Source: Escherichia phage vB_EcoM_LNA1. Taken from it: DNA of 64,000 nt. The notes under the pieces were generated by a model. It was not told where the DNA came from. It searched no databases and worked only from the letters and a program-made list of their open reading frames with translations. The translations under genes were made by a program, and so were the position numbers. Of the stretch, positions 1,610-50,832 are shown in pieces; the first letter of the stretch is position 1, and every line of letters begins with the position of its first letter. The DNA lies in the sequence record MZ311863.1; one strand, given 5' to 3'.

Positions 1610-3085
1610 GTGAGAAGAATGGCAGATATTACAGAAACACAAGAAAGCTTACCACCATTTAGAATGGGTGAAGTAGGTTCTTTGGGTCTGAAGGTTAAGA
1701 ATGGAAGAATCTATGAAGAACCTCGTCAGGCACTAAGGTTCCCCGAAAGTATTAAAACTTTCCAATTAATGATGCGTGACCCTGCTGTAGCAGCATCTGT
1801 AAATATTATTAAGATGTTTGTCAGAAAAGTCAACTGGAGATTCGTACCTCCAAAGGGAAAAGAGCAAGACCCTAAAATGCTTGAAAGAGCAGACTTCTTT
1901 AATTCTTTAATGGATGACATGGAGCATGATTGGGCAGATTTTATTAACTCTGTAATGTCATTCTGCACTTATGGGTTCTGTGTTAATGAAAAGGTTTATA
2001 AGAAACGTCAGGGTAAGAAAGGAAAGTACCAGTCAAAATTTGATGATGGTCTGATTGGATGGGCTAAGTTACCAATCAGAAACCAATCAACGCTTGATAA
2101 GTGGTATTTTGACGAAGACTTTAGAAAAGTTACAGGTGTTAGGCAGAATCTGAGAAATGTTTCACATATTGCTGGAGCAATTAATCTTGGAGAAAGACCG
2201 CTAACAAGAAAACTGCCACGAGCTAAATTCATGCTGTTTAAGTATGATGATGAATATGGAAACCCAGAAGGTCGTTCACCATTACTTAATGCCTATGTAC
2301 CGTGGAAGTATAAAGTCCAGATTGAAGAGTACGAAGCTGTTGGTGTTTCAAGAGACTTGGTAGGTATGCCAAAGATTGGTTTACCACCAGATTATCTGGA
2401 TGAAAATGCAGAACCTGAAAAGAAAGCTTTCGTACAATACTGCAAAACTGTTGTTAATGATATGATTGCTAATGACAGAGCAGGTTTAATCTGGCCTAGA
2501 TATATCGACCCAGATACTAAAGAGGATATTTTTGAGTTCTCATTAGTTTCTAGACAGGGTGCTAAAGCATACGATACAGGTTCTATTATTGACAGATATT
2601 CCAAGCAGATTATGATGGCATTTATGTCAGATGTTCTTGCTATGGGTCAGTCAAAATATGGTTCATTCTCTCTTGCAGATTCTAAGACAAGCTTACTAGC
2701 AATGTCAGTAGATATTCTGCTGAAGCAAATTAAGAACGTAATTAACCGTGATTTAGTTGCACAGACTTATGCTCTTAATATGTGGGATGATGAAGAACAT
2801 GTACAAATCACATATGATGATATCGAAACCCCAGACCTTGAAGTAATTGGTTCTTATATTCAGAAGACTGTTGCAGTAGGTGCTTTGGAAGTTGACAAAG
2901 AGCTATCTAACAAGCTTAGAGAGCATATTGGTCTTCCTCCTGCTAATGAGTCTCAGCCAGTATCTGAAAAGCTTTCTCCAAATAGCCAAAGCCGTTCAGG
3001 AGATGGTTATAAGACCGCTGGAGAAGGTACTGCAAAGACACCTTCAGCGAAAGACCCAAGCACAGCAAATAAGGCAAATAAATAA
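1610..3085 (+). CDS. portal protein (putative)
   Basis: 491-aa ORF directly after TerL, before protease/capsid genes; call by size and synteny only. Confidence 0.6.
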   Translation: MRRMADITETQESLPPFRMGEVGSLGLKVKNGRIYEEPRQALRFPESIKTFQLMMRDPAVAASVNIIKMFVRKVNWRFVPPKGKEQDPKMLERADFFNSLMDDMEHDWADFINSVMSFCTYGFCVNEKVYKKRQGKKGKYQSKFDDGLIGWAKLPIRNQSTLDKWYFDEDFRKVTGVRQNLRNVSHIAGAINLGERPLTRKLPRAKFMLFKYDDEYGNPEGRSPLLNAYVPWKYKVQIEEYEAVGVSRDLVGMPKIGLPPDYLDENAEPEKKAFVQYCKTVVNDMIANDRAGLIWPRYIDPDTKEDIFEFSLVSRQGAKAYDTGSIIDRYSKQIMMAFMSDVLAMGQSKYGSFSLADSKTSLLAMSVDILLKQIKNVINRDLVAQTYALNMWDDEEHVQITYDDIETPDLEVIGSYIQKTVAVGALEVDKELSNKLREHIGLPPANESQPVSEKLSPNSQSRSGDGYKTAGEGTAKTPSAKDPSTANKANK

Positions 3086-3585
3086 TGGCTGAAGTTATCT
3101 CTATTTCAAATGCTACACGAGTGCATTCGTATAGAGGTGTTCTTATTATCACTGACAAATTATCTGTAGAGGCTGGCTCAAGGGTTAGCCTTTCAGGTTA
3201 TGTAAGTGATGGTGGAGCCTCTGACGTTTTCACTATTTGCAGGTTACTTGATGCTCCAATGAGTGGAAAACCGTTTATTTCAGGAAATTGTAGTGAAATT
3301 GTTAAAATTCCATTTGACAGTTCATGCCTTTTGGGTGTAAAGTTATATAACTGCGAGAATAAACGTATCAATGTTAATAGCATTGAAGCCGCTTTCATTA
3401 CCCTCGACACTGCATTTCAATCTCCAATGACAGTTAATAAAGAAACAAACAGACTTGAATACATTTTTTCACAAAATGATTACAAAGTACTTGTCAAAGG
3501 CAAAGTTTATGATATGATTGTAAATGTGGTAGATGAATCTGGTAACCATTCAACAGTCCTTAAACAAAAAGTAAGGTTTAATTAA
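3085..3585 (+). CDS. hypothetical head-module protein
   Basis: 166-aa ORF, start overlaps portal stop (ATGA coupling). Confidence 0.3.
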   Translation: MAEVISISNATRVHSYRGVLIITDKLSVEAGSRVSLSGYVSDGGASDVFTICRLLDAPMSGKPFISGNCSEIVKIPFDSSCLLGVKLYNCENKRINVNSIEAAFITLDTAFQSPMTVNKETNRLEYIFSQNDYKVLVKGKVYDMIVNVVDESGNHSTVLKQKVRFN

Positions 3586-29474: not shown

Positions 29475-30026
29475 TCAACTTAGTTTTGCAAACTCTCCGT
29501 GGAGTTTAATAGCAGCTTCACAGTAAGCTTTATGGGCTTCTTCAGGGGTGTCAAACATACCAAGATGATAGTTTTTACCTTGTAAACGTATCATTGCTCG
29601 AAACCTTTTACTTATCTTCTGTACACCTTTTGGCAACCCAGATGGGGACTCTCTTGACCGATTGCAAGAGTTTTGTGAAGCTGTACAAACCCTTAAATTC
29701 AAGTACCTGTTGTCCCAACCGTCCCCATTCTTATGGTCAACCTGTAAGGTTTTATCAGGTAGATATCCATCCATATACAAGATAACTAAACGATTTGCTT
29801 GGTAACCCCTTCCATCAATCAGCAACTGAACTGACTTGTGTCCATCAGTATTTGTTCTGTAGTTTCCAGCCCTCTTACCTCCAAATCTAGAGTTAAAGTT
29901 TGCATTACCTTCTCTAAACTTCCAAGTAAAGACCCCTGTTTCGGGGTCGTAGTCCAATAGCTCCTTAAGACGAATTTCTGTAATCATTTCAACACCATCA
30001 ATGTACCTCATACCAGCTCTTACCAA
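29475..30026 (-). CDS. HNH homing endonuclease with AP2-like DNA-binding domain (free-standing)
   Basis: HNH motif LQVDHKNGDGWDNRYLNLRVCTASQN; C-terminal AP2-like GKNYHLGMFDTPEEAHKAY; start overlaps the 3' end of DNA polymerase exon 2. Confidence 0.7.
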   Translation of the reverse strand: MVRAGMRYIDGVEMITEIRLKELLDYDPETGVFTWKFREGNANFNSRFGGKRAGNYRTNTDGHKSVQLLIDGRGYQANRLVILYMDGYLPDKTLQVDHKNGDGWDNRYLNLRVCTASQNSCNRSRESPSGLPKGVQKISKRFRAMIRLQGKNYHLGMFDTPEEAHKAYCEAAIKLHGEFAKLS

Positions 30027-30554
30027 CCTTTGCTGTACCAGTTACAAGTGTTTCTTTCCTCAAACCTAAGTTTTTTGAAGCTTGTCCATACATCCAGTCA
30101 GCAATTGCTTTCATATCCTGTGTCATACCCTCTGGACATTCCCAACTATTTTCATCGTGATATGCCAGAAGTAACCTTGCTCCGATAGCTGGTTTTCGAG
30201 CATTCAGTTTTGTCAGGCCATCTTCACAGGCTTTTCTTGCTGCTAGGTTGATGGCCTCATTCTGAATCTGTGCTTCCGAACTCATCAGGAGGTAGTTCAG
30301 GAGTTTATGTGGAGATTTGCACCATATCCATGCTCCAGCGACCCTGATATAACCACCTTTAGCAATTGAAGAATTCTTCCCAAAAACCTCTTCCAGAGCC
30401 TTTTTAGACGCCTTAAAATCGGCTTCTAAGCTGTCAAGTAACTTCTTAATCTTCGGTAGACGCATATAGTAAGTCTGCTTAGTCAATGCACCTTCTTCTG
30501 TAGATGATGCCTTGATAGTTTTTGCAAACTTCTCATCACCTGCACCGAACAATA
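29998..30554 (-). CDS. DNA polymerase (family A), exon 2
   Basis: Encodes remainder of motif B (LFGAGDEK) and motif C (LAYHDE); reading frame opens just after a stop; joins exon 1 in frame when intron 30555..30822 is removed. Confidence 0.75.
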
Positions 30555-30822
30555 CATCTGGTCAATACACTCGCAAGGTGTACCAGTTCTCTTATGAACT
30601 TCTCCGCATTTCTACGGAGTGTCGGACTATATCACGTAGTAGTAATACTACCGTTGCACTTGGGAATGGTCATTAGCTTACCACCCTACTCTACTCAGTT
30701 CATACATTAAGTATGCTTTTCGATAGTCTCTGAACGTTCCTCTCAAGAGGCTTCGCTGCTGATTACCGTATCTTCTCAGACTTAGGCTTCCAGCAATTCA
30801 CAACGTTTTACATGCGCCACTG
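30555..30822 (-). ncRNA. group I self-splicing intron (ORF-less, 268 nt) in DNA polymerase gene
   Basis: Exon 1 ends in U; P1 pairs exon ATGCGU with intron GCGCAT (U.G at splice site); P/Q/R/S-like elements AATTGCTGGAA, AATCAGCAGCG, GTTCAGAGACTATCG, GATATAGTCC; terminal G before exon 2. Confidence 0.7.
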
Positions 30823-32965
30823 ACGCATAAATGCCATTTTTGGCTTTCTTACGACCTTTTGTAATCTCGTGAAGAAGTTCCTCGTCCTGTGTCCCCCTAC
30901 AACGAACAATATCTTCTTCCTTGTTCAGACCAAAGTAAATACTGTTCAGTGTGTGTGCATCAGTACCTGTGTAGACTTCGTAGAGGTCATTCTCAGCATC
31001 ATAACGAAGATACTTATCAGTTTCTGGATTGAGGTACTTATCAAGATGCTTGCAATAGTATCTCCCATCATCTTGCTTAGTAAATTCTACAAACTCTTTA
31101 CCTTCAGTTACCGCTTTGGTGAAGTCTTTATCACCCATAAAGTTACACAGTAAAACAAGCTGTGCAGAGTTCTGGTCAACAGAAACAATGTTAGTACCCT
31201 CTTCACAAATCCACACTTCCCTCATAGGTGCTCCATAGACAGCAGCACCAGATGGTACGTTTACAATACCATATTGTGTCATACGTCCAGTTGAAGTACC
31301 AAATACCATTGCACCAGCACTAAGGCGACCATCGGGACGAATCTGGTTCAACCAACCTTTTTCATCATCCTTTGAGTTCTCAATAGTTCTGCGTCGGTGC
31401 ATCAAAGTATAGTACTTAGCAATCTTCTGTCCAAGCTCACCTTCAATCGTATCATAAGATGATTCAGTAAGCTTTGGTGAAGTACGGATTAAGCAAGGCT
31501 CAAGCAAATCTGTGTATTTCTTCACAGACCAGTTATGCTCAATGTACTGTACACCTTCATGTTCAACATAGCTCAAACCACACCGCTCAACCATTTCCTG
31601 CCACTTAGGATGTTTTGTAATCATCTTTTTATTGTCTTTGAAACGACAAACTTTGACAGGGCGACCATCTGAGTCTTTCTTGTAGTTCCAGTCATCTGGA
31701 ATCCAACCAACTGATTTCAAGTAATCTTTAACAACTGCTACCTGAGTCATACGAGAAACTTCGAACTCAATTGGTGTATAAGGTGCATCAATCAAACCTG
31801 TGTAGCGACTTGACTCAAGCTCAAAGTGATTAACAACATGGCTGTTATAGTACTTCACAGTTTTAACTGTTTTTACTGGCTTCCAGTCTTTGCATTTCTT
31901 ACCAATCTTTGCATTCAACTCATTACAAATTGCACGAGCATCCTTCATTGCTACAAAACCTTCCTTGTACTCTTCACCAGTTACAGAGTTGGTTGGTGTA
32001 TAGCAATTTCTCTTTTCAATGTTAAAAATCTTTGTAGTTGGCTTACCAAATGGTTTGATTTCATAAGTCTGCATCTCACCATTACGTACCTGCTGACGAT
32101 ACTTTGTCTTAGGATACTTGGTAATTCTCTTCAGTCCATCTGCATGACCAAATGTTTCAACATACTCATTCCAAGCTTTTGCAAACTCTTCTCCAGTGAC
32201 TTTACCTTTAGTCTTAATAGTTGGAGGAAGATGTGGTTCAACTTCTGAAGCAAGCTCATTAGTCAACTTGTCAAGTTCCTTTACATGGAACTCCATAAGC
32301 TCTTTATCAGCTTTCCAACCATTGATAGCCTGTTGACTCATCCAGAAAGATGTTTCTTTAGCTCGCATGTAGGTTTCATAAGTATCTACGCCACACTTCT
32401 TTAGCTTGAGATATTCATTATCCAGTGCGCGTTTAGTTTTGGCGTTAATACGGATATCTTCCACAACACGAGTGAAGATTTCTGCATTCCACACACCCCA
32501 ATGTTCAATCTCTGGTTTACGTACACCAACACGAGCACCCCATGCAGCCAAGCCATGAGCACCTTTATAACCTTTTGGAGTTGGTCTATCCATCCACTGA
32601 ACACGGGACTGGATAAGAGAATCCTGAAAGAAATTACTCCACGGTTTACACTTTGGATTATCAAAGTTCCATAAATCCGGTGCAATGTGATTGAAAACCC
32701 ACCAGTCATAACCGAGACCGTTATGGATACAAAGACGTTTTGCCTTTAACGCAAACTCAACACCTTCACGTAAGCCACCCTTAATGTACTTAGTGTACTT
32801 GTGACCGAGGATAGGCTCATCTGTAAAGACCCATACAGGTGGCTCTTCATCGTCAGATTTATAGTCTGCAAAGGCCATTACGTGAACTTTAGTGAACTCA
32901 AGGAGTAAACCATCAGTTTCTGTATCACCAACCAAATGTAAGTTTTTAAAATCTACGTTTTCCAT
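30823..32965 (-). CDS. DNA polymerase (family A, T7 gp5-like), exon 1
   Basis: 3'-5' exonuclease motif DTETDG near N-terminus; motif B start RKKAKNGIYA interrupted; the ORF-track stop at 30782 lies inside the intron. Confidence 0.8.
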
Positions 32966-42053: not shown

Positions 42054-44288
42054 ATGATTAAGACAATTAAAAAATCAAACGGCACAGTAGTAAGCTTTGA
42101 CCCAGAAAGACTGAATAAGTGGGCATCATGGGCAGATAAACGTGGGATTATCTGGTCAGAAGTCACTATGGAAGCCATGAAACGTGTCTATGAGGGTTGC
42201 ACTACAAAAGAGATGCACCAAGCCATGATTGATGTTTGTGTTGATAAACAAACTCAAGAGTACTCAGATATGGCTGGACGACTGCTTTTGGGTATTATCT
42301 ACAAAGAAGCCTTTGGAGGCTTTACTAAGGTTCCTACGCTGGTTACCTTCGTTAAAAATATGGAGAGAGCAGGACTTTGGGAGAAGATGGATTATTCACA
42401 GGAAGAGCTTGAATACCTGCAAGGTTACATCGTACACTCAAAAGATATCTCTTACGGTTATGCAGTCTTGAAACAGTTCAGAGACAAGTATGGTATCCGT
42501 GATATTAAAACGGGAAGACTTTTTGAGTCACCACAATTTATGTTTATGGGTATGGCTATGAAAGCTTTTGAGAAGCAACCAAAGCACCGTAGACTGCAAG
42601 ATGTTATCAAGCTGTACACTTATCTATCTGACCTGAAGATTAATGCTCCCACACCTTATTTAAACGGTTTAAGAGCTACTAAATCAGGTTATGCGTCATG
42701 CTGTTTGATTAAGGCGAATGATACTGCTGAATCTCTAGGTATTGCTGCAAAGGTTGCCTATGACATGACCACAAAGCAAGCTGGTATTGGGATGCTGATG
42801 GAGACTCGCACTATTGGTGATGGCATCCGTCAAAATACTATTGAACACATGGGTAAGCTGCCTTATTATAAGCTTGTACGTTCATCTGTAGAGGCAAACA
42901 AACAGAAGAGTCGTGGTGGTTCAGCTAATAACTTCTACACTGCTCTAGACCCGCAGATTGAAGATTTACTGCGTTTGAAGCACCCTACAACGGTTCCTTC
43001 TAAACGTATTAATGAGATGGACTACTCATTCGGCACAAACGATTATTTCTGGCAGTGTGTTCAGTATGATACAGATTGGTTGCTATTCTCTTACAAAGAT
43101 GCACCAAAACTCTATGACATGTTCTACACAGCATCTGCTGATGAGTTTGCTATGGCAGTTGGTCACGCAGTACATACAGGAGTTAAGCACAGACGAGTAA
43201 AGGCTCGTGAAATTGCTAAGCTGTTTATTCAACAGCGTTATGCTACAGGTCGTGTGTATCCATTCTTCACTAACAATGCAAACACACATACACCATTTAA
43301 AGAACCATTGAAGATGTCAAATCTTTGTATGGAAATTGTATTGCCAGTGTATGGTTTTGAGAAAGAGACAGACCTTTACAGAGACGATGCTGTGAAAGAG
43401 GATGGTGAGGTGGCTCTTTGCTTCCTAGCTAGTTTGGTTGCAGGGAGAATTTCAGAAGATGAATACGCTGACGTTGCTTATTATGCTCTTGCAATGGTTG
43501 ACTCCGTTATTGACCTTATGGATTATCCGTATCCGTCGATGCGTAACCATGTTCAGAAGCGTCGTTCTGTTGGGATTGGCCTTACAAATGTGGCTCATTA
43601 CCTTGCGAAGAACTACGTGAACTACTCTTCACGAGCAGGTAAAACGAAACTTCATGAACTTGCAGAGATGCACTCTTACTATCTGCATGAAGCCTCTCTG
43701 AGACTTGCTAAAGAGCGTGGCGTTCCAGAGTACATGAAGTTCACTAAGTATCCTGAAGGCTGGGTTCCTCCAAAGACAGCTAACAAGAAGATTGATGAAA
43801 AGCATGATGCAAAACTACGATATGATTGGGATGACTTAGCACAACGTATCAAAGAAAATGGTGGAATCCGAAACTCTGTATTAGAAGCTTACATGCCTAA
43901 TGAGAGTTCTTCACTAGCAACTAATACGACAAACGGCTTGTACCCAATTCGTGACTTTATTTTAACTAAAAAGTCTGCAACCGGTAACGTACTGTTTATT
44001 GTTCCAGATTATGAAGAACTGAAGTATGTCTATGAAATTGCTTGGGATATTGACACCTTTGATATGATTGATTGTTATGCAATTGTTCAAAAGTTCACTG
44101 GTCAGGCTATCTCTTCAGACTTCTATGTTGACTATGCAAAGTCTAAGAAGGTATCATTGGCTCAAGCTTTGAAGTACATGATTTATGCCAACTCGGTAGG
44201 TATGAAAACCATGTACTACCTTAACAGTCGCATTGGTGTAGGTAAATCTGCACTGCAAGATGCTTATTGCGAGGGTTGTGGTGTTTAG
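42054..44288 (+). CDS. nrdA: ribonucleotide reductase class Ia large subunit
   Basis: N-terminal ATP-cone (IKKSNGTVVSFDPERLNKW); active-site NLCMEIVL; C-terminal YCEGCGV cysteine pair; 744 aa. Confidence 0.85.
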   Translation: MIKTIKKSNGTVVSFDPERLNKWASWADKRGIIWSEVTMEAMKRVYEGCTTKEMHQAMIDVCVDKQTQEYSDMAGRLLLGIIYKEAFGGFTKVPTLVTFVKNMERAGLWEKMDYSQEELEYLQGYIVHSKDISYGYAVLKQFRDKYGIRDIKTGRLFESPQFMFMGMAMKAFEKQPKHRRLQDVIKLYTYLSDLKINAPTPYLNGLRATKSGYASCCLIKANDTAESLGIAAKVAYDMTTKQAGIGMLMETRTIGDGIRQNTIEHMGKLPYYKLVRSSVEANKQKSRGGSANNFYTALDPQIEDLLRLKHPTTVPSKRINEMDYSFGTNDYFWQCVQYDTDWLLFSYKDAPKLYDMFYTASADEFAMAVGHAVHTGVKHRRVKAREIAKLFIQQRYATGRVYPFFTNNANTHTPFKEPLKMSNLCMEIVLPVYGFEKETDLYRDDAVKEDGEVALCFLASLVAGRISEDEYADVAYYALAMVDSVIDLMDYPYPSMRNHVQKRRSVGIGLTNVAHYLAKNYVNYSSRAGKTKLHELAEMHSYYLHEASLRLAKERGVPEYMKFTKYPEGWVPPKTANKKIDEKHDAKLRYDWDDLAQRIKENGGIRNSVLEAYMPNESSSLATNTTNGLYPIRDFILTKKSATGNVLFIVPDYEELKYVYEIAWDIDTFDMIDCYAIVQKFTGQAISSDFYVDYAKSKKVSLAQALKYMIYANSVGMKTMYYLNSRIGVGKSALQDAYCEGCGV

Positions 44289-44343: not shown

Positions 44344-44601
44344 ATGAAAGATTTAATAGAAAAACATGAGCGACCTATATACTTGCTCCACAAGCCTCGG
44401 AAAACGATGTACTATGTGAGTAGCACAGACATGATGATAAAACAAAAGGATGACTCATGGGTTGCTGGTATATCTTACATCTCTACAGCAGATGGTAAAA
44501 TCTACGCAAGACCTTATGAGATGTTCAATGAAGAAAATTGGGAAGTTTTAGACAGAAAACAAGCCTTAGAAATGATAAAGAAAGGAGAAATCACACTATG
44601 A
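44344..44601 (+). CDS. hypothetical protein
   Basis: ATG at 44344 with GGAGAG SD; lies between nrdA and nrdB after a stem-loop (44302..44321). Confidence 0.3.
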   Translation: MKDLIEKHERPIYLLHKPRKTMYYVSSTDMMIKQKDDSWVAGISYISTADGKIYARPYEMFNEENWEVLDRKQALEMIKKGEITL

Positions 44602-45671
44602 TTAACCAGCACCCAATCTTTTTAGGCGGTGAGAGAAAAACTTTTGACTCACTTAATAAGCACTACCCAAAAATCTTTGAACTTTATAAACAACAAAAAG
44701 CACAAGACTGGTCAGAAGATGAGTTCCCTTTTGAGCAATCACGTCTTGATTTTGAGAGTGTGCCAGCATCAATGTCAGGTGTAATGCTTGAGATTCTTAA
44801 GTGGCAGTGGGAAGCAGATACCCAAGTTGCTAAGAGCTTGGCATTCGCCTTTGCACCATTCATCTCTGATGATATTTATGCAACTGCAATTATGAAGCAG
44901 TCTGAGATTGAAAACCTACATGCTCTAACTTACTCGGAGATTGTAAGGCAATGTATTAAAAATCCTGAAACAATCTTAGATGAGATTAACCAGAACGTTG
45001 CTGTACAAGACCGATTAAAAACTGTGAATCGTGTTCTTGAAGAATTACTAGATGAAGGTATAAACTACCGACTGAGTTATGTCCGTGGCTCACTTCTGGA
45101 CAAAGACCCTTTACACTTCCATAAAGTGATTCTGAAAGGTCTATTTGCAGTGACTGCACTGGAAGGTATATCTTTTATGGCATCCTTTGCATGTACTTTT
45201 GCACTTGATGCTCAAGATAAATTTCAGGGTATTGCTCAAGCGGTACAGAAAATTATGCTTGACGAAATCCTTCACACTAAAATTGATATTGAAGTTTTAA
45301 AAGAAACTTTAAGAGATGATGAGTGGCAGAAAGCTTTTCAACAAATTCTTCCAGAGATTAAAGTAATCTTAGATGAAGTAGTTGAAAGTGAAGAGAAATG
45401 GTCGTATTATATCTTCTCCGAAGGACGTGCTGTAGTTGGCTTAAATACAAAGCTTCTTCATGAGTGGGTTTACTATAATGCTGCCCCGCTGTATGACATG
45501 TTTGGCATTCAAAGAGATTTTGTAGCTCCTAAAGAACCACCTTTGAAGTACATGATTAAGAAGATGGAAATTGATAAAGAGCAGAATGCTAATCAGGAGC
45601 AACAGAACGGTGCGTACCTGTTGAATACTGTTGTAGACGATTTGAATAGTGGATTTTTAGAGGTTCCTTAA
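44598..45671 (+). CDS. nrdB: ribonucleotide reductase class Ia small subunit
   Basis: Start set at ATG 44598 (AAAGGAGAAA SD), beginning MINQHPIFLGG; ferritin-like diiron protein by position and size (357 aa). Confidence 0.75.
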   Translation: MINQHPIFLGGERKTFDSLNKHYPKIFELYKQQKAQDWSEDEFPFEQSRLDFESVPASMSGVMLEILKWQWEADTQVAKSLAFAFAPFISDDIYATAIMKQSEIENLHALTYSEIVRQCIKNPETILDEINQNVAVQDRLKTVNRVLEELLDEGINYRLSYVRGSLLDKDPLHFHKVILKGLFAVTALEGISFMASFACTFALDAQDKFQGIAQAVQKIMLDEILHTKIDIEVLKETLRDDEWQKAFQQILPEIKVILDEVVESEEKWSYYIFSEGRAVVGLNTKLLHEWVYYNAAPLYDMFGIQRDFVAPKEPPLKYMIKKMEIDKEQNANQEQQNGAYLLNTVVDDLNSGFLEVP

Positions 45672-45913
45672 TGACTTATGTAATTTACTCCAAAACTGGA
45701 TGCCCTCAGTGTGAGACTGCAAAGAATTTTGCAAAAGCTCGTGGTATTGACCACGTTGTGAGAATGTTAGGGCAGGATTATGAGCTATCAGACCTGATGG
45801 ATATTGCACAGATGCCAGTTCGTCAGATGCCATTCATCATGAAAACTGATGGACAAAACCTAAAACCTGTTGGTACGCTACAGAATTTTATGGCAGAGGT
45901 GAATAATGCTTAA
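45671..45913 (+). CDS. glutaredoxin-like protein (NrdH/Grx)
   Basis: Redox motif CPQC near N-terminus (YSKTGCPQCETAK); 80 aa; follows nrdB. Confidence 0.7.
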   Translation: MTYVIYSKTGCPQCETAKNFAKARGIDHVVRMLGQDYELSDLMDIAQMPVRQMPFIMKTDGQNLKPVGTLQNFMAEVNNA

Positions 45914-46112
45914 ACGCCTTTGGGAAGGTTTGGTTGTTGATGCACCAGCTATTGTGATTGGTATGCTTATTGTTAACCTATTTACTGACTTTGAACAAGG
46001 TTCATTGTTTGGAGCCATGTTACTATGGGTTATCTTTGAAATATTAGAGATACAGTTAGGTATCACTGAAAAACTAAGAGAACTCTTTGCGAAGTTTTCT
46101 AAAAAGATTTAA
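45906..46112 (+). CDS. small membrane protein (hypothetical)
   Basis: 68 aa, hydrophobic. Confidence 0.3.
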   Translation: MLKRLWEGLVVDAPAIVIGMLIVNLFTDFEQGSLFGAMLLWVIFEILEIQLGITEKLRELFAKFSKKI

Positions 46113-46120
46113 AATGAAAG

Positions 46121-46141
46121 GGTCTCTTCGGAGACCTTTTT
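46121..46141 (+). terminator. rho-independent terminator
   Basis: GGTCTC-TTCG-GAGACC hairpin then TTTTT. Confidence 0.6.
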
Positions 46142-46160: not shown

Positions 46161-47357
46161 ATGAACAAAGTACAGATTATTAAAAAGAATGGCTCACTTG
46201 AAGAACCTGATATCAAAAAAGTTTTAGCAGCAGTCACTAAGTCAGCTAATAGGGTTGGGTATAAAGAACTACCACCAGATGTTACCCAAGCTCTTGAGTC
46301 AGCATTTATGAGGATTCTGGTAAAATCCACTAAGCAGAATAATTTACTCATTTCAGTAAATGATATTCACAGTATTGTTGAGGGTGCTTTGGCAGAAGTC
46401 AATCACGAGATTTATGAGTCTTACTCAACATATAGAAATTACCGTAAAGAAGTTGCTCAAAATTGGGATGAACTCTACCAGAAGACCAAAGATACACTCT
46501 TCTTAGGTGACAGAGAGAATGCTAACTTTGACAGCAGTTTAATTTCTACAAAAGGCTCAATTATTCGTGGTTACCTGACTAAAGAAATCTTTAAACAGTA
46601 CCATTTAACACCAGAGGAACTTGAAGCCATTGAAAAAGGGTTTATCTATATCCATGATTTAAGAGACCTGATTTTTGGTGGTATCAACTGTTGCCTGTTT
46701 GACATTGGCAAAGTGCTGAAAGGTGGCTTTGAAATGTCTGGCATTGAATACTGTGAACCGAAGTCTGTACTGTCAGCCTTACAGGTTATTGGTGATGTAG
46801 TTCTTTCAGCAACTGCACAGCAATTTGGTGGCTTTACTTTAGCAGAGATTGATAAGGTACTTGTACCGTATGCTAAAAAATCTTTAGTGTACCACTCAGA
46901 GAAAGCTGAAGAGTACGGAATCCCTAAAGAGCAACACTATAATTACGTAATGGAGCAATTACAGAATGAGTTAACACAAGGTTTCCAATCTCTTGAAATG
47001 AAACTTAACACTGTTCCTTGCAGTCGCGGTGATTTTGCATTTACTACTCTGACATTTGGTCTGTTGGAACCAGATATGCACAATGAAGATAACCGTCTTC
47101 AGTTTATGATTGCCAATACAATCCTTAACGTAAGGATGAACGGGCAAGGAAAAAGCAAAAAACCTGTTGTGTTCCCTAAACTTGTTTATATCTATGAAGA
47201 AACGAGACATAAGCTTGATGTATGCCAAGCAAGGTTGTTTGAAAAAGCTATTGAGTGTTGCTCTAAAGCGATGTATCCAGATTTCTTAAGTGTGTCTGGT
47301 CATGGTGCTGTAGCAGAGGCTTTTGAGCGTTCTGGTAAGGTAATTTCACCGATGGGT
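46161..47357 (+). CDS. nrdD: anaerobic ribonucleotide reductase (class III), exon 1
   Basis: ATP-cone at N-terminus; ends ...ISPMG immediately before intron; the in-frame TAA at 47358 is intronic. Confidence 0.75.
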
Positions 47358-48099
47358 TAACAAGCTCTATAGCTCATCTAAAACGTGCCTAAACAGGGAA
47401 ACTCTACAGATGTAGATAATCCTGTGCTAAATGATGTAAGATGTAAGAAACTATATAACATAGGAGTATTACATGCCAAATTATCATGTTACTGAAGACG
47501 GAAGAGTCTTTAGAGAAAATGGTGTAGAGCTTACACAGTGGAAATCCAACACTGGGTATATGAAAGTAAAGTTTTACGGTAAGAAGAATCGTGACATGTA
47601 TGTCCATAGGTTAGTTGCTGAGAAATATGTACCTAACCCAAACAATCTTCCAATTGTAAAACACAAAGATGATAACAAACTGAACAACCATGCTTCTAAC
47701 TTAGAATGGGGAACTCATTCTGAGAATGTTAAAGAAGGTTATGAGAACGGTTGCTACAAGTTTTGTAAGCGTTCATATGCTGTGAAGGCTACACACAAAG
47801 TGACAAAAGAAGTTATTGCTGCCAAGTCAATACGAGAGTTATCCAACATACTCGGATATAATCGCAAGACTATCTCTTCAATATTGAAGGGTGTAAAAGA
47901 GCATAATAACTTTGAACATGAATTTGAATACATCTAAATGCCGAACGACTAACCGTGATGAATGTAGCGGTGTAGGGTCAAGCGACTCGAAATGGTACGC
48001 TACTTAGAAATAAGTAGAAGATATAGTCTGGACTTACTGGTGACAGTAAGCAGCTTGGATAAAGCGGGGTAAGCGTAGCGAACTTACCTGAACAACAAG
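47358..48099 (+). ncRNA. group I intron in nrdD carrying an HNH endonuclease ORF
   Basis: Exon 1 ends in U, intron ends in G; P/Q-like CAGGGAAA (47394) and AATCCTG (47418); R/S-like TCAAGCGACTC (47978) and GAAGATATAGTCTGG (48018); P8-like hairpin with GTGA loop; removal fuses PMG-CRAFL in frame. Confidence 0.6.
47473..47937 (+). CDS. intron-encoded HNH homing endonuclease
   Basis: HNH motif HKDDNKLNNHASNLEWGTHSEN; 154 aa; lies in the loop between the Q-like and R-like intron elements. Confidence 0.7.
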   Translation: MPNYHVTEDGRVFRENGVELTQWKSNTGYMKVKFYGKKNRDMYVHRLVAEKYVPNPNNLPIVKHKDDNKLNNHASNLEWGTHSENVKEGYENGCYKFCKRSYAVKATHKVTKEVIAAKSIRELSNILGYNRKTISSILKGVKEHNNFEHEFEYI

Positions 48100-49047
48100 T
48101 GTAGAGCGTTTTTATCACCATACCATAACGAAGATGGTGAAGAGTTTTATGTAGGTCGTGCTAACATTGGTGCTGTATCTTTGAACTTACCAATGATTTA
48201 CCAGTATTCTAAAGAGAATGGCTTAGATTTCTGGAAAGAGCTTGATAAGTACCTAGAAATGATTCGCAGCTTCCACAAGAAACGTTACGAAATGATTGCT
48301 AATATGCCAGCAAGTTCTAACCCTCTTGCATTCACACAAGGTGGCCTGTACAAAGGGAATAAGAAACCTACTGACAAGGTTGGCTGGGATATCGTGAAGT
48401 CCTTCACAGCTTCTTTTGGGGTTACTGCGCTTGATGAGCTATCTGTTCTTGCTGAAGGTAAACGACTTCATGAAGTTGGAAGCTGTAGTTTTGCATATGA
48501 TGTTCTGGAATATATCAACATGAAGACTGAAGAGTTTAAAAATGAAGATGGCTTCTTATATGCAGTCTATGGCACTCCAGCAGAATCACTTTGTGGAACT
48601 CAGCTAAAACAGTTCAGAGATATGTTTGGCGTTATCAAAGGCGTTTCTGACAAGGAATACTTTACAAACAGTTTCCATATGAATGTTGCAGCAGACATTA
48701 CACCATTTGAGAAGCAGGACTTAGAAGAACCTTTCTTCCATATCTGTAGAGGCGGCAGAATCCAGTATGTAAGAGTGGCTAATCCAGAAAACTTATCAGC
48801 ACTTAAGAGTTGTATTACAAGAGGGATGTTGAAAGGTTTCTATCAGGGACTTAACTTTGACTTAGCAATCTGTGAACATTGTGGTAACAGACCAAAGGCT
48901 GATGTTGAAGAATGTGATGTTTGCCATTCACATGATATTTCTGTGATTAACAGGGTGTGCGGATATCTGGGATGGACTAAGATTAAAGGTGAATCCCGAA
49001 TGAACGATGCAAAAATCGCTGAGATTCGTGACAGAATTTCTATGTAA
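48100..49047 (+). CDS. nrdD: anaerobic ribonucleotide reductase (class III), exon 2
   Basis: Begins CRAFLSPY...; contains glycyl-radical motif RVCGYLG near C-terminus; frame opens 8 codons upstream after a TAG. Confidence 0.75.
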   Translation, partial: CRAFLSPYHNEDGEEFYVGRANIGAVSLNLPMIYQYSKENGLDFWKELDKYLEMIRSFHKKRYEMIANMPASSNPLAFTQGGLYKGNKKPTDKVGWDIVKSFTASFGVTALDELSVLAEGKRLHEVGSCSFAYDVLEYINMKTEEFKNEDGFLYAVYGTPAESLCGTQLKQFRDMFGVIKGVSDKEYFTNSFHMNVAADITPFEKQDLEEPFFHICRGGRIQYVRVANPENLSALKSCITRGMLKGFYQGLNFDLAICEHCGNRPKADVEECDVCHSHDISVINRVCGYLGWTKIKGESRMNDAKIAEIRDRISM

Positions 49048-49056
49048 AACTTGACA

Positions 49057-49096
49057 AGGTGATGCGGGTCTTGATAGGCTTGCATCACCTTTTTAT
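49057..49096 (+). terminator. rho-independent terminator
   Basis: AGGTGATGC / GCATCACCT 9-bp stem, 16-nt loop, then TTTTT. Confidence 0.55.
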
Positions 49097-50346: not shown

Positions 50347-50832
50347 ATGAATTACATGGAGATTAGACCATTTGATACAGCTAATGGTGAAGGGGTTCGT
50401 GTAAGCCTCTTCGTAGCTGGTTGTAAGCATCACTGTGAAGGCTGCTTTAACAGGGAGTCTTGGAAGTTTAATGCTGGTAAAGAGTTTACTTATGCAAACC
50501 TATACGGAATCATCCAGTTAATGGGTGACGATGCTGTCAGTGGGTTGTCAATACTTGGTGGAGAACCTCTGGATGATAGAAATATTCAAGAGGTTACCGA
50601 CATATGCAAACGTGTTAAAACTGTTTACCCAGAGAAGACTATATGGCTCTGGACAGGTTTTCAACTACACGAAAAAATTCACCTAGATGTGATGAAATAT
50701 GTTGACGTGGTGATTGATGGTAAGTATGATTCATCTAAACCAACAGTTAAACCATATCGTGGTTCTGATAACCAAAACCTCTGGAGAAAAGAGTATGGGT
50801 GGCAAGGTGATTGTCAGTGGAGAGCCGAGTAA
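50347..50832 (+). CDS. nrdG: anaerobic ribonucleotide reductase activating enzyme (radical SAM)
   Basis: Radical-SAM cysteine triad CKHHCEGC (Cx3Cx2C); 161 aa; downstream of nrdD. Confidence 0.75.
   Translation: MNYMEIRPFDTANGEGVRVSLFVAGCKHHCEGCFNRESWKFNAGKEFTYANLYGIIQLMGDDAVSGLSILGGEPLDDRNIQEVTDICKRVKTVYPEKTIWLWTGFQLHEKIHLDVMKYVDVVIDGKYDSSKPTVKPYRGSDNQNLWRKEYGWQGDCQWRAE

Follow-up and report, generated by a model that had tools for sequence, protein, structure and literature searches.

Here, we identify a group I intron in the class III ribonucleotide reductase gene nrdD of Escherichia phage vB_EcoM_LNA1, within a stretch of 64,000 nucleotides (nt) of its genome (sequence record MZ311863.1) that we refer to as the window. 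We propose, with a probability of roughly 0.93, that nrdD forms one transcription unit in which a 742-nt group IA2 intron splices itself out to yield a 714-residue NrdD, and that an I-HmuI-like endonuclease encoded in the loop of the intron's P6 helix renders the element mobile. The window genome belongs to Felixounavirus (Felix O1-like myoviruses); its nrdD region is 97% identical to that of Escherichia phage vB_Eco_Tribble and 93-97% identical to those of many other members of the genus. The gene and its insert are laid out as follows:

46161..47357, plus strand: nrdD exon 1, 399 codons, comprising the ATP-cone and the N-terminal half of the NrdD barrel and ending ...ISPMG
47358..48099, plus strand: group I intron (IA2, T4 sunY-like), 742 nt, phase 0, with an in-frame TAA as its first three bases
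48100..49047, plus strand: nrdD exon 2, 315 codons and a stop, with TGT for the catalytic Cys400 as its first codon

Comparison with uninterrupted relatives sets the ends of the insert to the nucleotide. In six Felixounavirus alleles that lack it (those of phages warpig, heid, garuso, CL1, Barry and DaR-2019b), positions 47357 and 48100 are contiguous and the sequence reads CCGATGGGT|TGCAGAGC. The insert is preceded by exon base T47357 and ends with G48099; its excision produces the predicted ligated junction ...CCGAUGGGU|UGUAGAGCG... and an in-frame protein of 714 residues reading ...SPMG|CRAFLSPY..., and the uninterrupted NrdD of phage warpig is likewise 714 residues long (coding sequence 2145 nt). 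When the insert is left in place, the open reading frame (ORF) at 46161..47360 encodes 399 residues ending ISPMG before it meets the TAA at intron bases 1-3, and more stops follow in all frames further in; we excluded an intein on the basis of the in-frame stop codons. Pfam recognizes an ATP-cone at residues 5-97 of exon 1 (E 3.8e-12) followed by NRDD profile positions 1-250, while the translation of exon 2 (48100-49044) matches NRDD profile positions 264-560 (E 2.7e-64) and Gly_radical, the two NRDD halves abutting at profile positions 250 and 264. The glycyl-radical motif RVCGYLG lies at 48952-48972, in exon 2, and the excised product combines the NRDD barrel, the finger-loop cysteine and this C-terminal motif in a single polypeptide.

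The fused protein is collinear with T4 NrdD (PDB 1H78, E 1.5e-78) over residues 118-697. The alignment lays the window's ISPMG-C on T4 VSPMG-C290 (position counted on the alignment), matching Cys400 to Cys290, and therefore places the intron in phase 0, immediately 5' of the catalytic cysteine codon; RVCGYLG falls on RRTCAYLG of the crystallised T4 protein. We take Cys290 to be the number of the T4 catalytic cysteine (Logan et al. 1999), an open-access citation for this residue number having been sought and not found. The conserved finger-loop cysteine and Gly580 of NrdD are described in PMC4493059. Spliced coding sequences of intron-bearing phages are intact, with 65 synonymous and 10 nonsynonymous codon differences between the window and phage momo, and 122 synonymous and 38 nonsynonymous differences from phage REP8; in the intron-bearing phages, nrdD function is probably kept and the exons are under purifying selection. 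A preliminary description of this locus, made from its letters alone, had read nrdD as a 399-residue part with an ATP cone ending ISPMG and a part bearing RVCGYLG, separated by a 742-nt insert that follows an exon U and ends in G, and had placed a PMGC junction near the expected active-site cysteine. ORF reading and Pfam recover the same two parts, the exact boundaries match the six intron-less alleles, the 714-residue fusion (SPMG|CRAFLSPY) has the length of warpig NrdD, and the alignment with 1H78 puts the junction cysteine on Cys290. Alignment with uninterrupted NrdD, one of the checks that this description had itself proposed, is contiguous at the predicted junction in the intron-less relatives.

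The insert is a group IA2 intron related to that of T4 sunY, with P7.1 and P7.2 present and no P2. Its elements are:

47351..47357, plus strand: 5' exon strand of P1, GAUGGGU, with a U47357.G47372 wobble at the 5' splice site
47364..47378, plus strand: internal guide, GCUCUAUA|GCUCAUC, consisting of the P10 strand (47364-47371) and then the P1 strand (47372-47378)
47384..47389, plus strand: 5' strand of P3, CGUGCC, pairing with 47994-47999; 100% paired, with three pairs changed on both sides
47393..47425, plus strand: P4-P5 domain, with P4 formed by ACAGGG (47393-47398) and UCCUGU (47420-47425), and P5 by UCUAC (47403-47407) and GUAGA (47412-47416)
47426..47438, plus strand: 5' side of P6, GC (47426-47427) and GAUGUA (47433-47438), the ORF being looped out of P6
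47929..47941, plus strand: 3' side of P6, UACAUC (47929-47934), the ORF stop UAA (47935-47937) and GC (47940-47941)
47945..47951, plus strand: 5' strand of P7, the true 'R' element, A-(C bulge)-GACUA (ACGACTA in DNA), pairing with 48024-48029
47952..47988, plus strand: P7.1 and P7.2, the IA2-specific extension, ACCG (47952-47955) with CGGU (47968-47971) and GGGUC (47975-47979) with GACUC (47984-47988)
47994..48017, plus strand: 3' strand of P3, GGUACG (47994-47999), and the P8 hairpin, CUACUUA-GAAA-UAAGUAG (48000-48017)
48024..48029, plus strand: 3' strand of P7, UAGUCU, inside the conserved GAAGAUAUAGUCU ('S' element)
48033..48088, plus strand: P9 (48033-48050, GUGA loop), P9.1 (GCUU 48053-48056, AAGC 48062-48065) and P9.2 (GGUAAG 48068-48073, CUUACC 48083-48088)
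48099, plus strand: omega-G, the terminal intron G at the 3' splice site; a final G is common to all nine homologous introns

These nine homologues are T4 sunY, the introns of Krischvirus phiS, phi92, nepoznato, navn and Vibrio phage F97, and those of the window, momo and REP8. We excised the ORF loops, aligned the cores and assigned the helices by hand, taking the structure from one of the nine sequences. Scored by column, 97.7% of the 512 pair cells hold canonical pairs, as against 33-43% with partners slid by 1-3 columns. By the same scoring, 22 pairs have changed on both sides, versus 1-4 in the slid controls, and the covariation score is 0.412, versus ~0.06 in the controls, a value reached by 0/500 shuffles; a hand-read helix table counts 508/509 pairs as canonical. 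The P1 pairing of GAUGGGU with GCUCAUC is complete (7/7 pairs) in all nine sequences, and the P10 strand GCUCUAUA pairs 8/8 with exon 2 bases UGUAGAGC (48100-48107). Both guide helices change in step with the host gene: with a Pro codon (CCG) in the exon, the outermost P1 pair is G-C, with a Ser codon (AGC/AGU) it is C-G or U.G, and P10 covaries with the exon 2 Arg codon, F97 having AUUGGCA / UGCCGAU with CGA in place of AGA. The P7.1 and P7.2 hairpins both covary, and both are present in the unconstrained fold. The unconstrained minimum-energy fold of the REP8 allele recovers P10, P3, P4, P5, P6, P7.1, P7.2, P8, P9, P9.1 and P9.2 (z = -3.4), and every helix of the window's own intron is fully paired. 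P7, with A-(C bulge)-GACUA facing UAGUCU, has the sequence of a guanosine-binding helix with a bulged nucleotide before a G-C pair. An Rfam search of the whole window at the gathering threshold returned a DNA polymerase intron only and did not find the nrdD intron; a permissive scan with RF00028 matched the intron in two pieces that flank the ORF, P4-P6 (47393-47490, 17.6 bits) and P7-P9 (47870-48050, 38.3 bits, E 5.6e-8). The natural ORF-less alleles of REP8 and momo have a core almost the same as the window's; on these, RF00028 reaches 55.4 and 54.4 bits, above the gathering score of 50.

The reading frame looped out of P6 encodes a predicted endonuclease and is preceded by its own ribosome-binding site:

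47462..47466, plus strand: ribosome-binding site AGGAG, 6 nt 5' of the HNH start codon, by direct sequence reading
47473..47937, plus strand: intron ORF for a predicted I-HmuI-like HNH homing endonuclease of 154 residues, whose last codons form the 3' strand of P6

Its product has matches to Pfam HNH_3 (E 2.6e-10; 40.2 bits, cut-off 24.8) and PHROG 59 (E 8.6e-44), and aligns with I-HmuI (PDB 1U3E, E 1.1e-9) near full length, over residues 3-145, with His64, Asn76 and Asn85 on I-HmuI His75, Asn87 and Asn96. A match to PHROG 3855 (helix-turn-helix) is weak (E 0.00095), and the I-HmuI alignment extends to residue 145. In every ORF-bearing record examined, all 154 codons are intact. For an internal promoter of the ORF, a scan confined to sigma-70-type sites gave zero plus-strand matches inside the intron. 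For sequestration of the HNH gene's ribosome-binding site, an arrangement known from T4 introns, we make no claim: the hairpin there is weak (-5.7 kcal/mol, z = -0.83, with 41/200 shuffles folding as stably). The intron-less phage warpig has a putative free-standing homing endonuclease directly 3' of nrdD (2856-3362 of its sequence, NUMOD3 motif only), which has no counterpart downstream of nrdD in the window and shows no kinship with the intron's HNH protein (E 0.72).

The preliminary description had also named the insert a group I intron encoding an HNH endonuclease, and had suggested covariance models as a further check. Group I identity is borne out by the RF00028 scores of 55.4 and 54.4 bits on REP8 and momo, above the gathering score, and by covariation over the nine homologues, and the endonuclease by HNH_3 and the alignment with I-HmuI. 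Among the individual elements that it had picked out, the P/Q-like CAGGGAAA and AATCCTG are the two strands of P4 and the GTGA-loop hairpin is P9. One half of its R/S-like pair stands, GAAGATATAGTCTGG holding the 3' strand of P7, while the other, TCAAGCGACTC, is the loop and 3' strand of P7.2, with the true R being ACGACTA at 47945-47951. The candidate guide GCCTA was misplaced: it is the end of P3 plus J3/4, P3 covarying with 47994-47999, and the real guide is at 47364-47378. These two mis-assigned elements, the guide and R, leave the conclusion of that description unchanged.

Relatives retrieved with the spliced junction as a query fall into three classes, split by 742 nt, split by ~316 nt, or uninterrupted, and these three allelic states (intron with ORF, intron without ORF, no intron) occur among phages whose flanks are ~90-97% identical. 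The intron, at an identity of at least 95%, is present in ~93 records out of ~225-240 related nrdD genes. In the short form, found in momo, REP8 and others, the ORF has lost 426 nt in frame, down to a 12-codon remnant, and the ribozyme is kept. Momo and REP8, which are E. coli and Salmonella phages, carry the same 426-nt deletion (CCAAAT|AAC..., intron nt ~116-154), which implies that the deletion arose once and then spread; the start codon of the remnant has changed from ATG to ATA in momo. In a comparison of the 250 nt on either side of the insertion site between seven alleles with the intron and six without, we find seven fixed, intron-linked differences, which lie only in exon 2, at +3, +9, +18, +24, +26, +33 and +39:

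48102..48138, plus strand: intron-linked exon-2 tract, a probable co-conversion tract and/or endonuclease target region

A short asymmetric tract of this kind is as expected if repair were initiated by an endonuclease and accompanied by co-conversion (compare PMC2988022), and it suggests that the recognition site may lie mainly in exon 2; at +3, the intron-linked base probably improves P10 pairing. In the intron-bearing Salmonella phage PMBT20, the intron-less haplotype GAGTTCTACGTTGG sets in just past +39 (+40 to +60), so that a recombination breakpoint coincides with the edge of the intron-linked tract. Salmonella phage ST11 (MF370225) presents a further junction: at ~position 400, its nrdD reads GGT TAA TTTTTATCACC, keeping the first 3 intron bases and the intron-type exon-2 haplotype but lacking all other intron bases as well as exon-2 nt 1-9. 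This is either an imprecise intron loss that kills nrdD by removing the Cys-Arg-Ala codons or an assembly error.

Introns at the same nrdD site occur in Krischvirus phiS, phi92, Phapecoctavirus nepoznato, Vequintavirus navn and Vibrio phage F97, all with the form ...AUGGGU|intron|UG(U/C).... They share the architecture of the window intron and its homologous HNH ORFs, the phi92 copy being ORF-less. Their cores are 70-80% identical, the sequences of P6, P8 and P9.1 are entirely different, and the P1 and P10 guides are fitted to the codons of each host gene. On this comparison, the window intron belongs with the Gly|Cys-site nrdD introns, which occur in at least four phage groups besides its own. 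Homologous ORFs (40-55% identity) occupy the same loop of the same-site introns in phiS, nepoznato, navn and F97, which represent four other phage groups, so that intron and endonuclease appear to travel together across phage groups. Two of these genes hold additional inserts 5' of the Cys-site intron: one of ~308 nt in navn (1383-1692 of its sequence) and an HNH-containing one in F97 (224-1384 of its sequence).

We propose the following model for expression and inheritance of the split gene. In the precursor RNA, the 5' exon end GAUGGGU and the guide segment GCUCAUC would make up P1, placing the U.G wobble at the splice site, and an external guanosine held in P7 would attack after U47357. The first eight bases of exon 2, UGUAGAGC, would pair with the adjacent guide segment GCUCUAUA to form P10, the terminal G48099 would take the place of the guanosine, and the exons would be ligated between the Gly399 and Cys400 codons. 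The product would be an mRNA for a 714-residue NrdD with its finger-loop cysteine (T4 Cys290) and glycyl-radical motif in one polypeptide. On unspliced RNA, ribosomes would halt at the TAA formed by intron bases 1-3, and the HNH gene would be expressed from its own AGGAG site. In a mixed infection, the endonuclease would nick or cut an intron-less nrdD near the insertion site, recognizing mainly exon 2, and repair off the intron-bearing genome would copy the intron together with ~40-50 nt of exon 2.

Most GenBank records of this locus annotate two NrdD coding sequences and an HNH gene, and the nrdD of phage UAB_Phi87 has been called a 'split gene' interrupted by a homing endonuclease (PMC4837284). 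Such descriptions would fit a gene in pieces, its halves translated separately and assembled without RNA splicing. A precedent is Aeromonas phage Aeh1, in which the gene for a ribonucleotide reductase catalytic subunit (nrdA) is likewise cut by an HNH endonuclease gene (mobE) and, without a ribozyme, gives two polypeptides, according to the summary in PMC3653736. Unlike Aeh1, however, the window has a complete ribozyme, and its second half has no start at the catalytic cysteine: exon 2 contains no start codon at or near Cys400, and its first in-frame start is TTG 48181, 27 codons downstream, so that a separately translated second half would be without the catalytic cysteine. Moreover, the non-coding parts of the insert are a conserved, covarying group I ribozyme that is retained where the ORF has been deleted, and the guide pairs through P1 and P10 with both exon ends and covaries with them. 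We therefore regard assembly from separate halves as scarcely credible. It is only slightly easier to believe, and still highly improbable, that the intron is a decaying relic that splices poorly in what is effectively a pseudogene, the aerobic NrdAB sufficing. Genes nrdA and nrdB do lie just upstream, and the ST11 deletion, which takes the intron and the Cys-Arg-Ala codons, would mean that nrdD can be lost, unless it is an assembly error. Yet all helices of the window intron are fully paired, the exons are intact and under purifying selection in intron-bearing phages, and ~93 records keep the element with a core that is at least 95% identical.

Several points weigh against our proposal of a self-splicing, mobile intron. 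The full RF00028 model scores below its gathering score in the window and above it only on ORF-less alleles, because the 484-nt loop of P6, which contains the ORF, interrupts the alignment. The guanosine-binding helix P7 does not vary among the nine sequences and gives no covariation signal either way; being invariant and also pseudoknotted, it is addressed neither by covariation nor by the free fold. Self-splicing in vivo, endonuclease activity and the position of the cleavage site are steps that we infer. A C-terminal DNA-binding module in the endonuclease is weakly supported, with a NUMOD1 match (E 0.0079, 16.9 bits) below the Pfam cut-off of 22.8, and Lys63 stands at the position of I-HmuI Asp74, which we take to be a metal ligand, so that endonuclease activity could differ. 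The exon-2 tract, too, could have arisen from selection on P10 pairing or from hitch-hiking instead of co-conversion. The lysine substitution, and the persistence of ORF-less introns in many phages, where the ribozyme evidently does not need the protein, would suit an intron that splices but whose HNH protein is inactive or serves as a splicing helper, its presence and absence reflecting ordinary recombination and loss. We consider this unlikely, as the 154-codon ORF is preserved intact wherever it occurs among the records examined, is 40-55% identical across distant phage groups with its catalytic His and Asn residues conserved, and is accompanied by an exon tract that is sharply asymmetric and reaches no further than 40 nt from the insertion site, a pattern that repair initiated by an endonuclease would produce. 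A more speculative idea, to which we give little credence, is that the intron acts as a conditional switch for anaerobic deoxynucleotide synthesis, splicing efficiency setting the ratio of active NrdD to truncated protein. In T4 introns, splicing efficiency depends on translation and on guanosine nucleotides. Unspliced RNA would yield a 399-residue protein with an ATP-cone and no catalytic cysteine, which could bind allosteric effectors or poison dimers.

The closest ribozyme relative of the window intron is the T4 sunY intron, which resides in the same host gene, nrdD, and likewise begins with an in-frame UAA at the 5' splice site. The two ribozymes are clearly homologous, sharing subgroup IA2, the absence of P2, the guide GCUCAU(G/C), a J1/3 of UAAAA, a P7.1 loop of UGAUGAAUGUA, P7.2, P9 and P9.2. 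Their insertion sites differ: the T4 intron splits the Tyr180 codon (AYE|YEVNT), 110 codons 5' of Cys290, whereas the window intron lies at Gly399|Cys400, equivalent to T4 Gly289|Cys290. Their cargo differs as well, T4 sunY encoding the 258-residue GIY-YIG enzyme I-TevII in its 3' P9 region and the window intron a 154-residue HNH protein in the P6 loop. Insertion site, endonuclease family and ORF position together rule out orthology with the T4 sunY intron and I-TevII. The T4 td intron (I-TevI), whose 3' half is 70.7% identical over ~160 nt, resembles the window intron in that its ORF is looped out of P6 with a 3' end overlapping the ribozyme and in that its upstream exon ends ...GGGU; unlike the window intron, it has a P2 helix, and its host gene (thymidylate synthase) and enzyme family (GIY-YIG) differ from the window's nrdD and HNH. 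I-HmuI is encoded in the SPO1 DNA polymerase intron, like the window intron a phage group I intron within a conserved motif of a DNA-metabolism gene, but with ~25-30% identity between the endonucleases, another target gene and another phage lineage. Both I-HmuI and I-HmuII cut a single strand, and flanking exon markers are inherited preferentially as a result of their action (PMC2988022), a bias that resembles the exon-2 tract of the window.

Mobile group I introns that carry a homing endonuclease are very well known as selfish elements; the Gly|Cys nrdD site is formally undescribed. In GenBank, BASEL phage Bas63 (Felixounavirus) has nrdD annotated as a join, and the phi92 record has a 'spliced variant'. 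The BASEL preprint sets intron boundaries by comparative genomics and goes no further, the Felix O1 paper reports no insertions in Felix O1 nrdD, and our literature search found no paper that analyses the Felixounavirus nrdD intron as a ribozyme.

The split gene sits in a nucleotide-metabolism block, with the following genes and candidate signals around it:

42054-44288: nrdA, upstream of the split nrdD
44538-45671: nrdB
45671-45913: glutaredoxin gene
46087..46115, plus strand: sigma-70-like promoter match 5' of nrdD, TTGCGA-17-TAAAAT, 9/12; weak, a consensus match only
49056..49091, plus strand: strong terminator-like hairpin right after the nrdD stop codon, 16 pairs and a T-run
50347-50832: nrdG, 3' of the split nrdD

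Sigma-70 consensus matches in the region scanned for promoters are fewer than in that region's own shuffles. No terminator-like hairpin was found on the plus strand between the two exons; a terminator only after exon 2 suggests that both exons belong to a single transcription unit. Between a small membrane-protein gene and nrdD, at 46121-46136, a GC-rich hairpin GGTCTCTTCGGAGACC with T-runs on both strands looks like a bidirectional terminator, just past the promoter-like site.

The window contains a second group I intron, the DNA polymerase intron returned by Rfam. This ORF-less element of 271 nt, at 30558-30828 on the minus strand (RF00028 at 30602-30885, 61.5 bits, above the gathering score), splits a family A DNA polymerase gene inside motif B. 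By reading, the 5' exon ends at T30829 and the intron at G30558, joining the exons as ...KAKNGIY|VLFGAGDEK...; the downstream piece has a weak Pfam DNA_pol_A match (E 6.5e-6). DNA polymerase exon 2 (29998-30552) is followed directly, with a slight overlap, by a free-standing endonuclease ORF of 183 residues with HNH_3 and AP2 domains (29475-30026, minus strand). Such a combination of an ORF-less intron and a neighbouring free-standing endonuclease is the arrangement proposed for 'collaborative homing'.

The nrdD intron leaves current understanding unchanged, and its interest is modest. Most of the ~90 intron-bearing Felix O1-like genomes are annotated with two genes and a stray endonuclease, and the exact junction allows a single 714-residue NrdD to be annotated instead; several of these phages are used in Salmonella and E. 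coli biocontrol, where "fragmented" genes raise questions. With this element, phage nrdD also gains a second intron site, an independent one placed precisely at the catalytic cysteine codon, and an instance of the rule by which homing elements occupy the most highly conserved codons. The genus as a whole offers a natural series of stages in the homing cycle of an I-HmuI-type enzyme, from intron with ORF through deletion of the ORF to the empty site and possibly imprecise loss. Across phages more broadly, the data favour a history in which one pairing of intron and I-HmuI-like endonuclease may have crossed at least five phage lineages at the Gly|Cys site of nrdD, excluding, in the manner of I-HmuI and I-HmuII, the exon-2 markers of its competitors.

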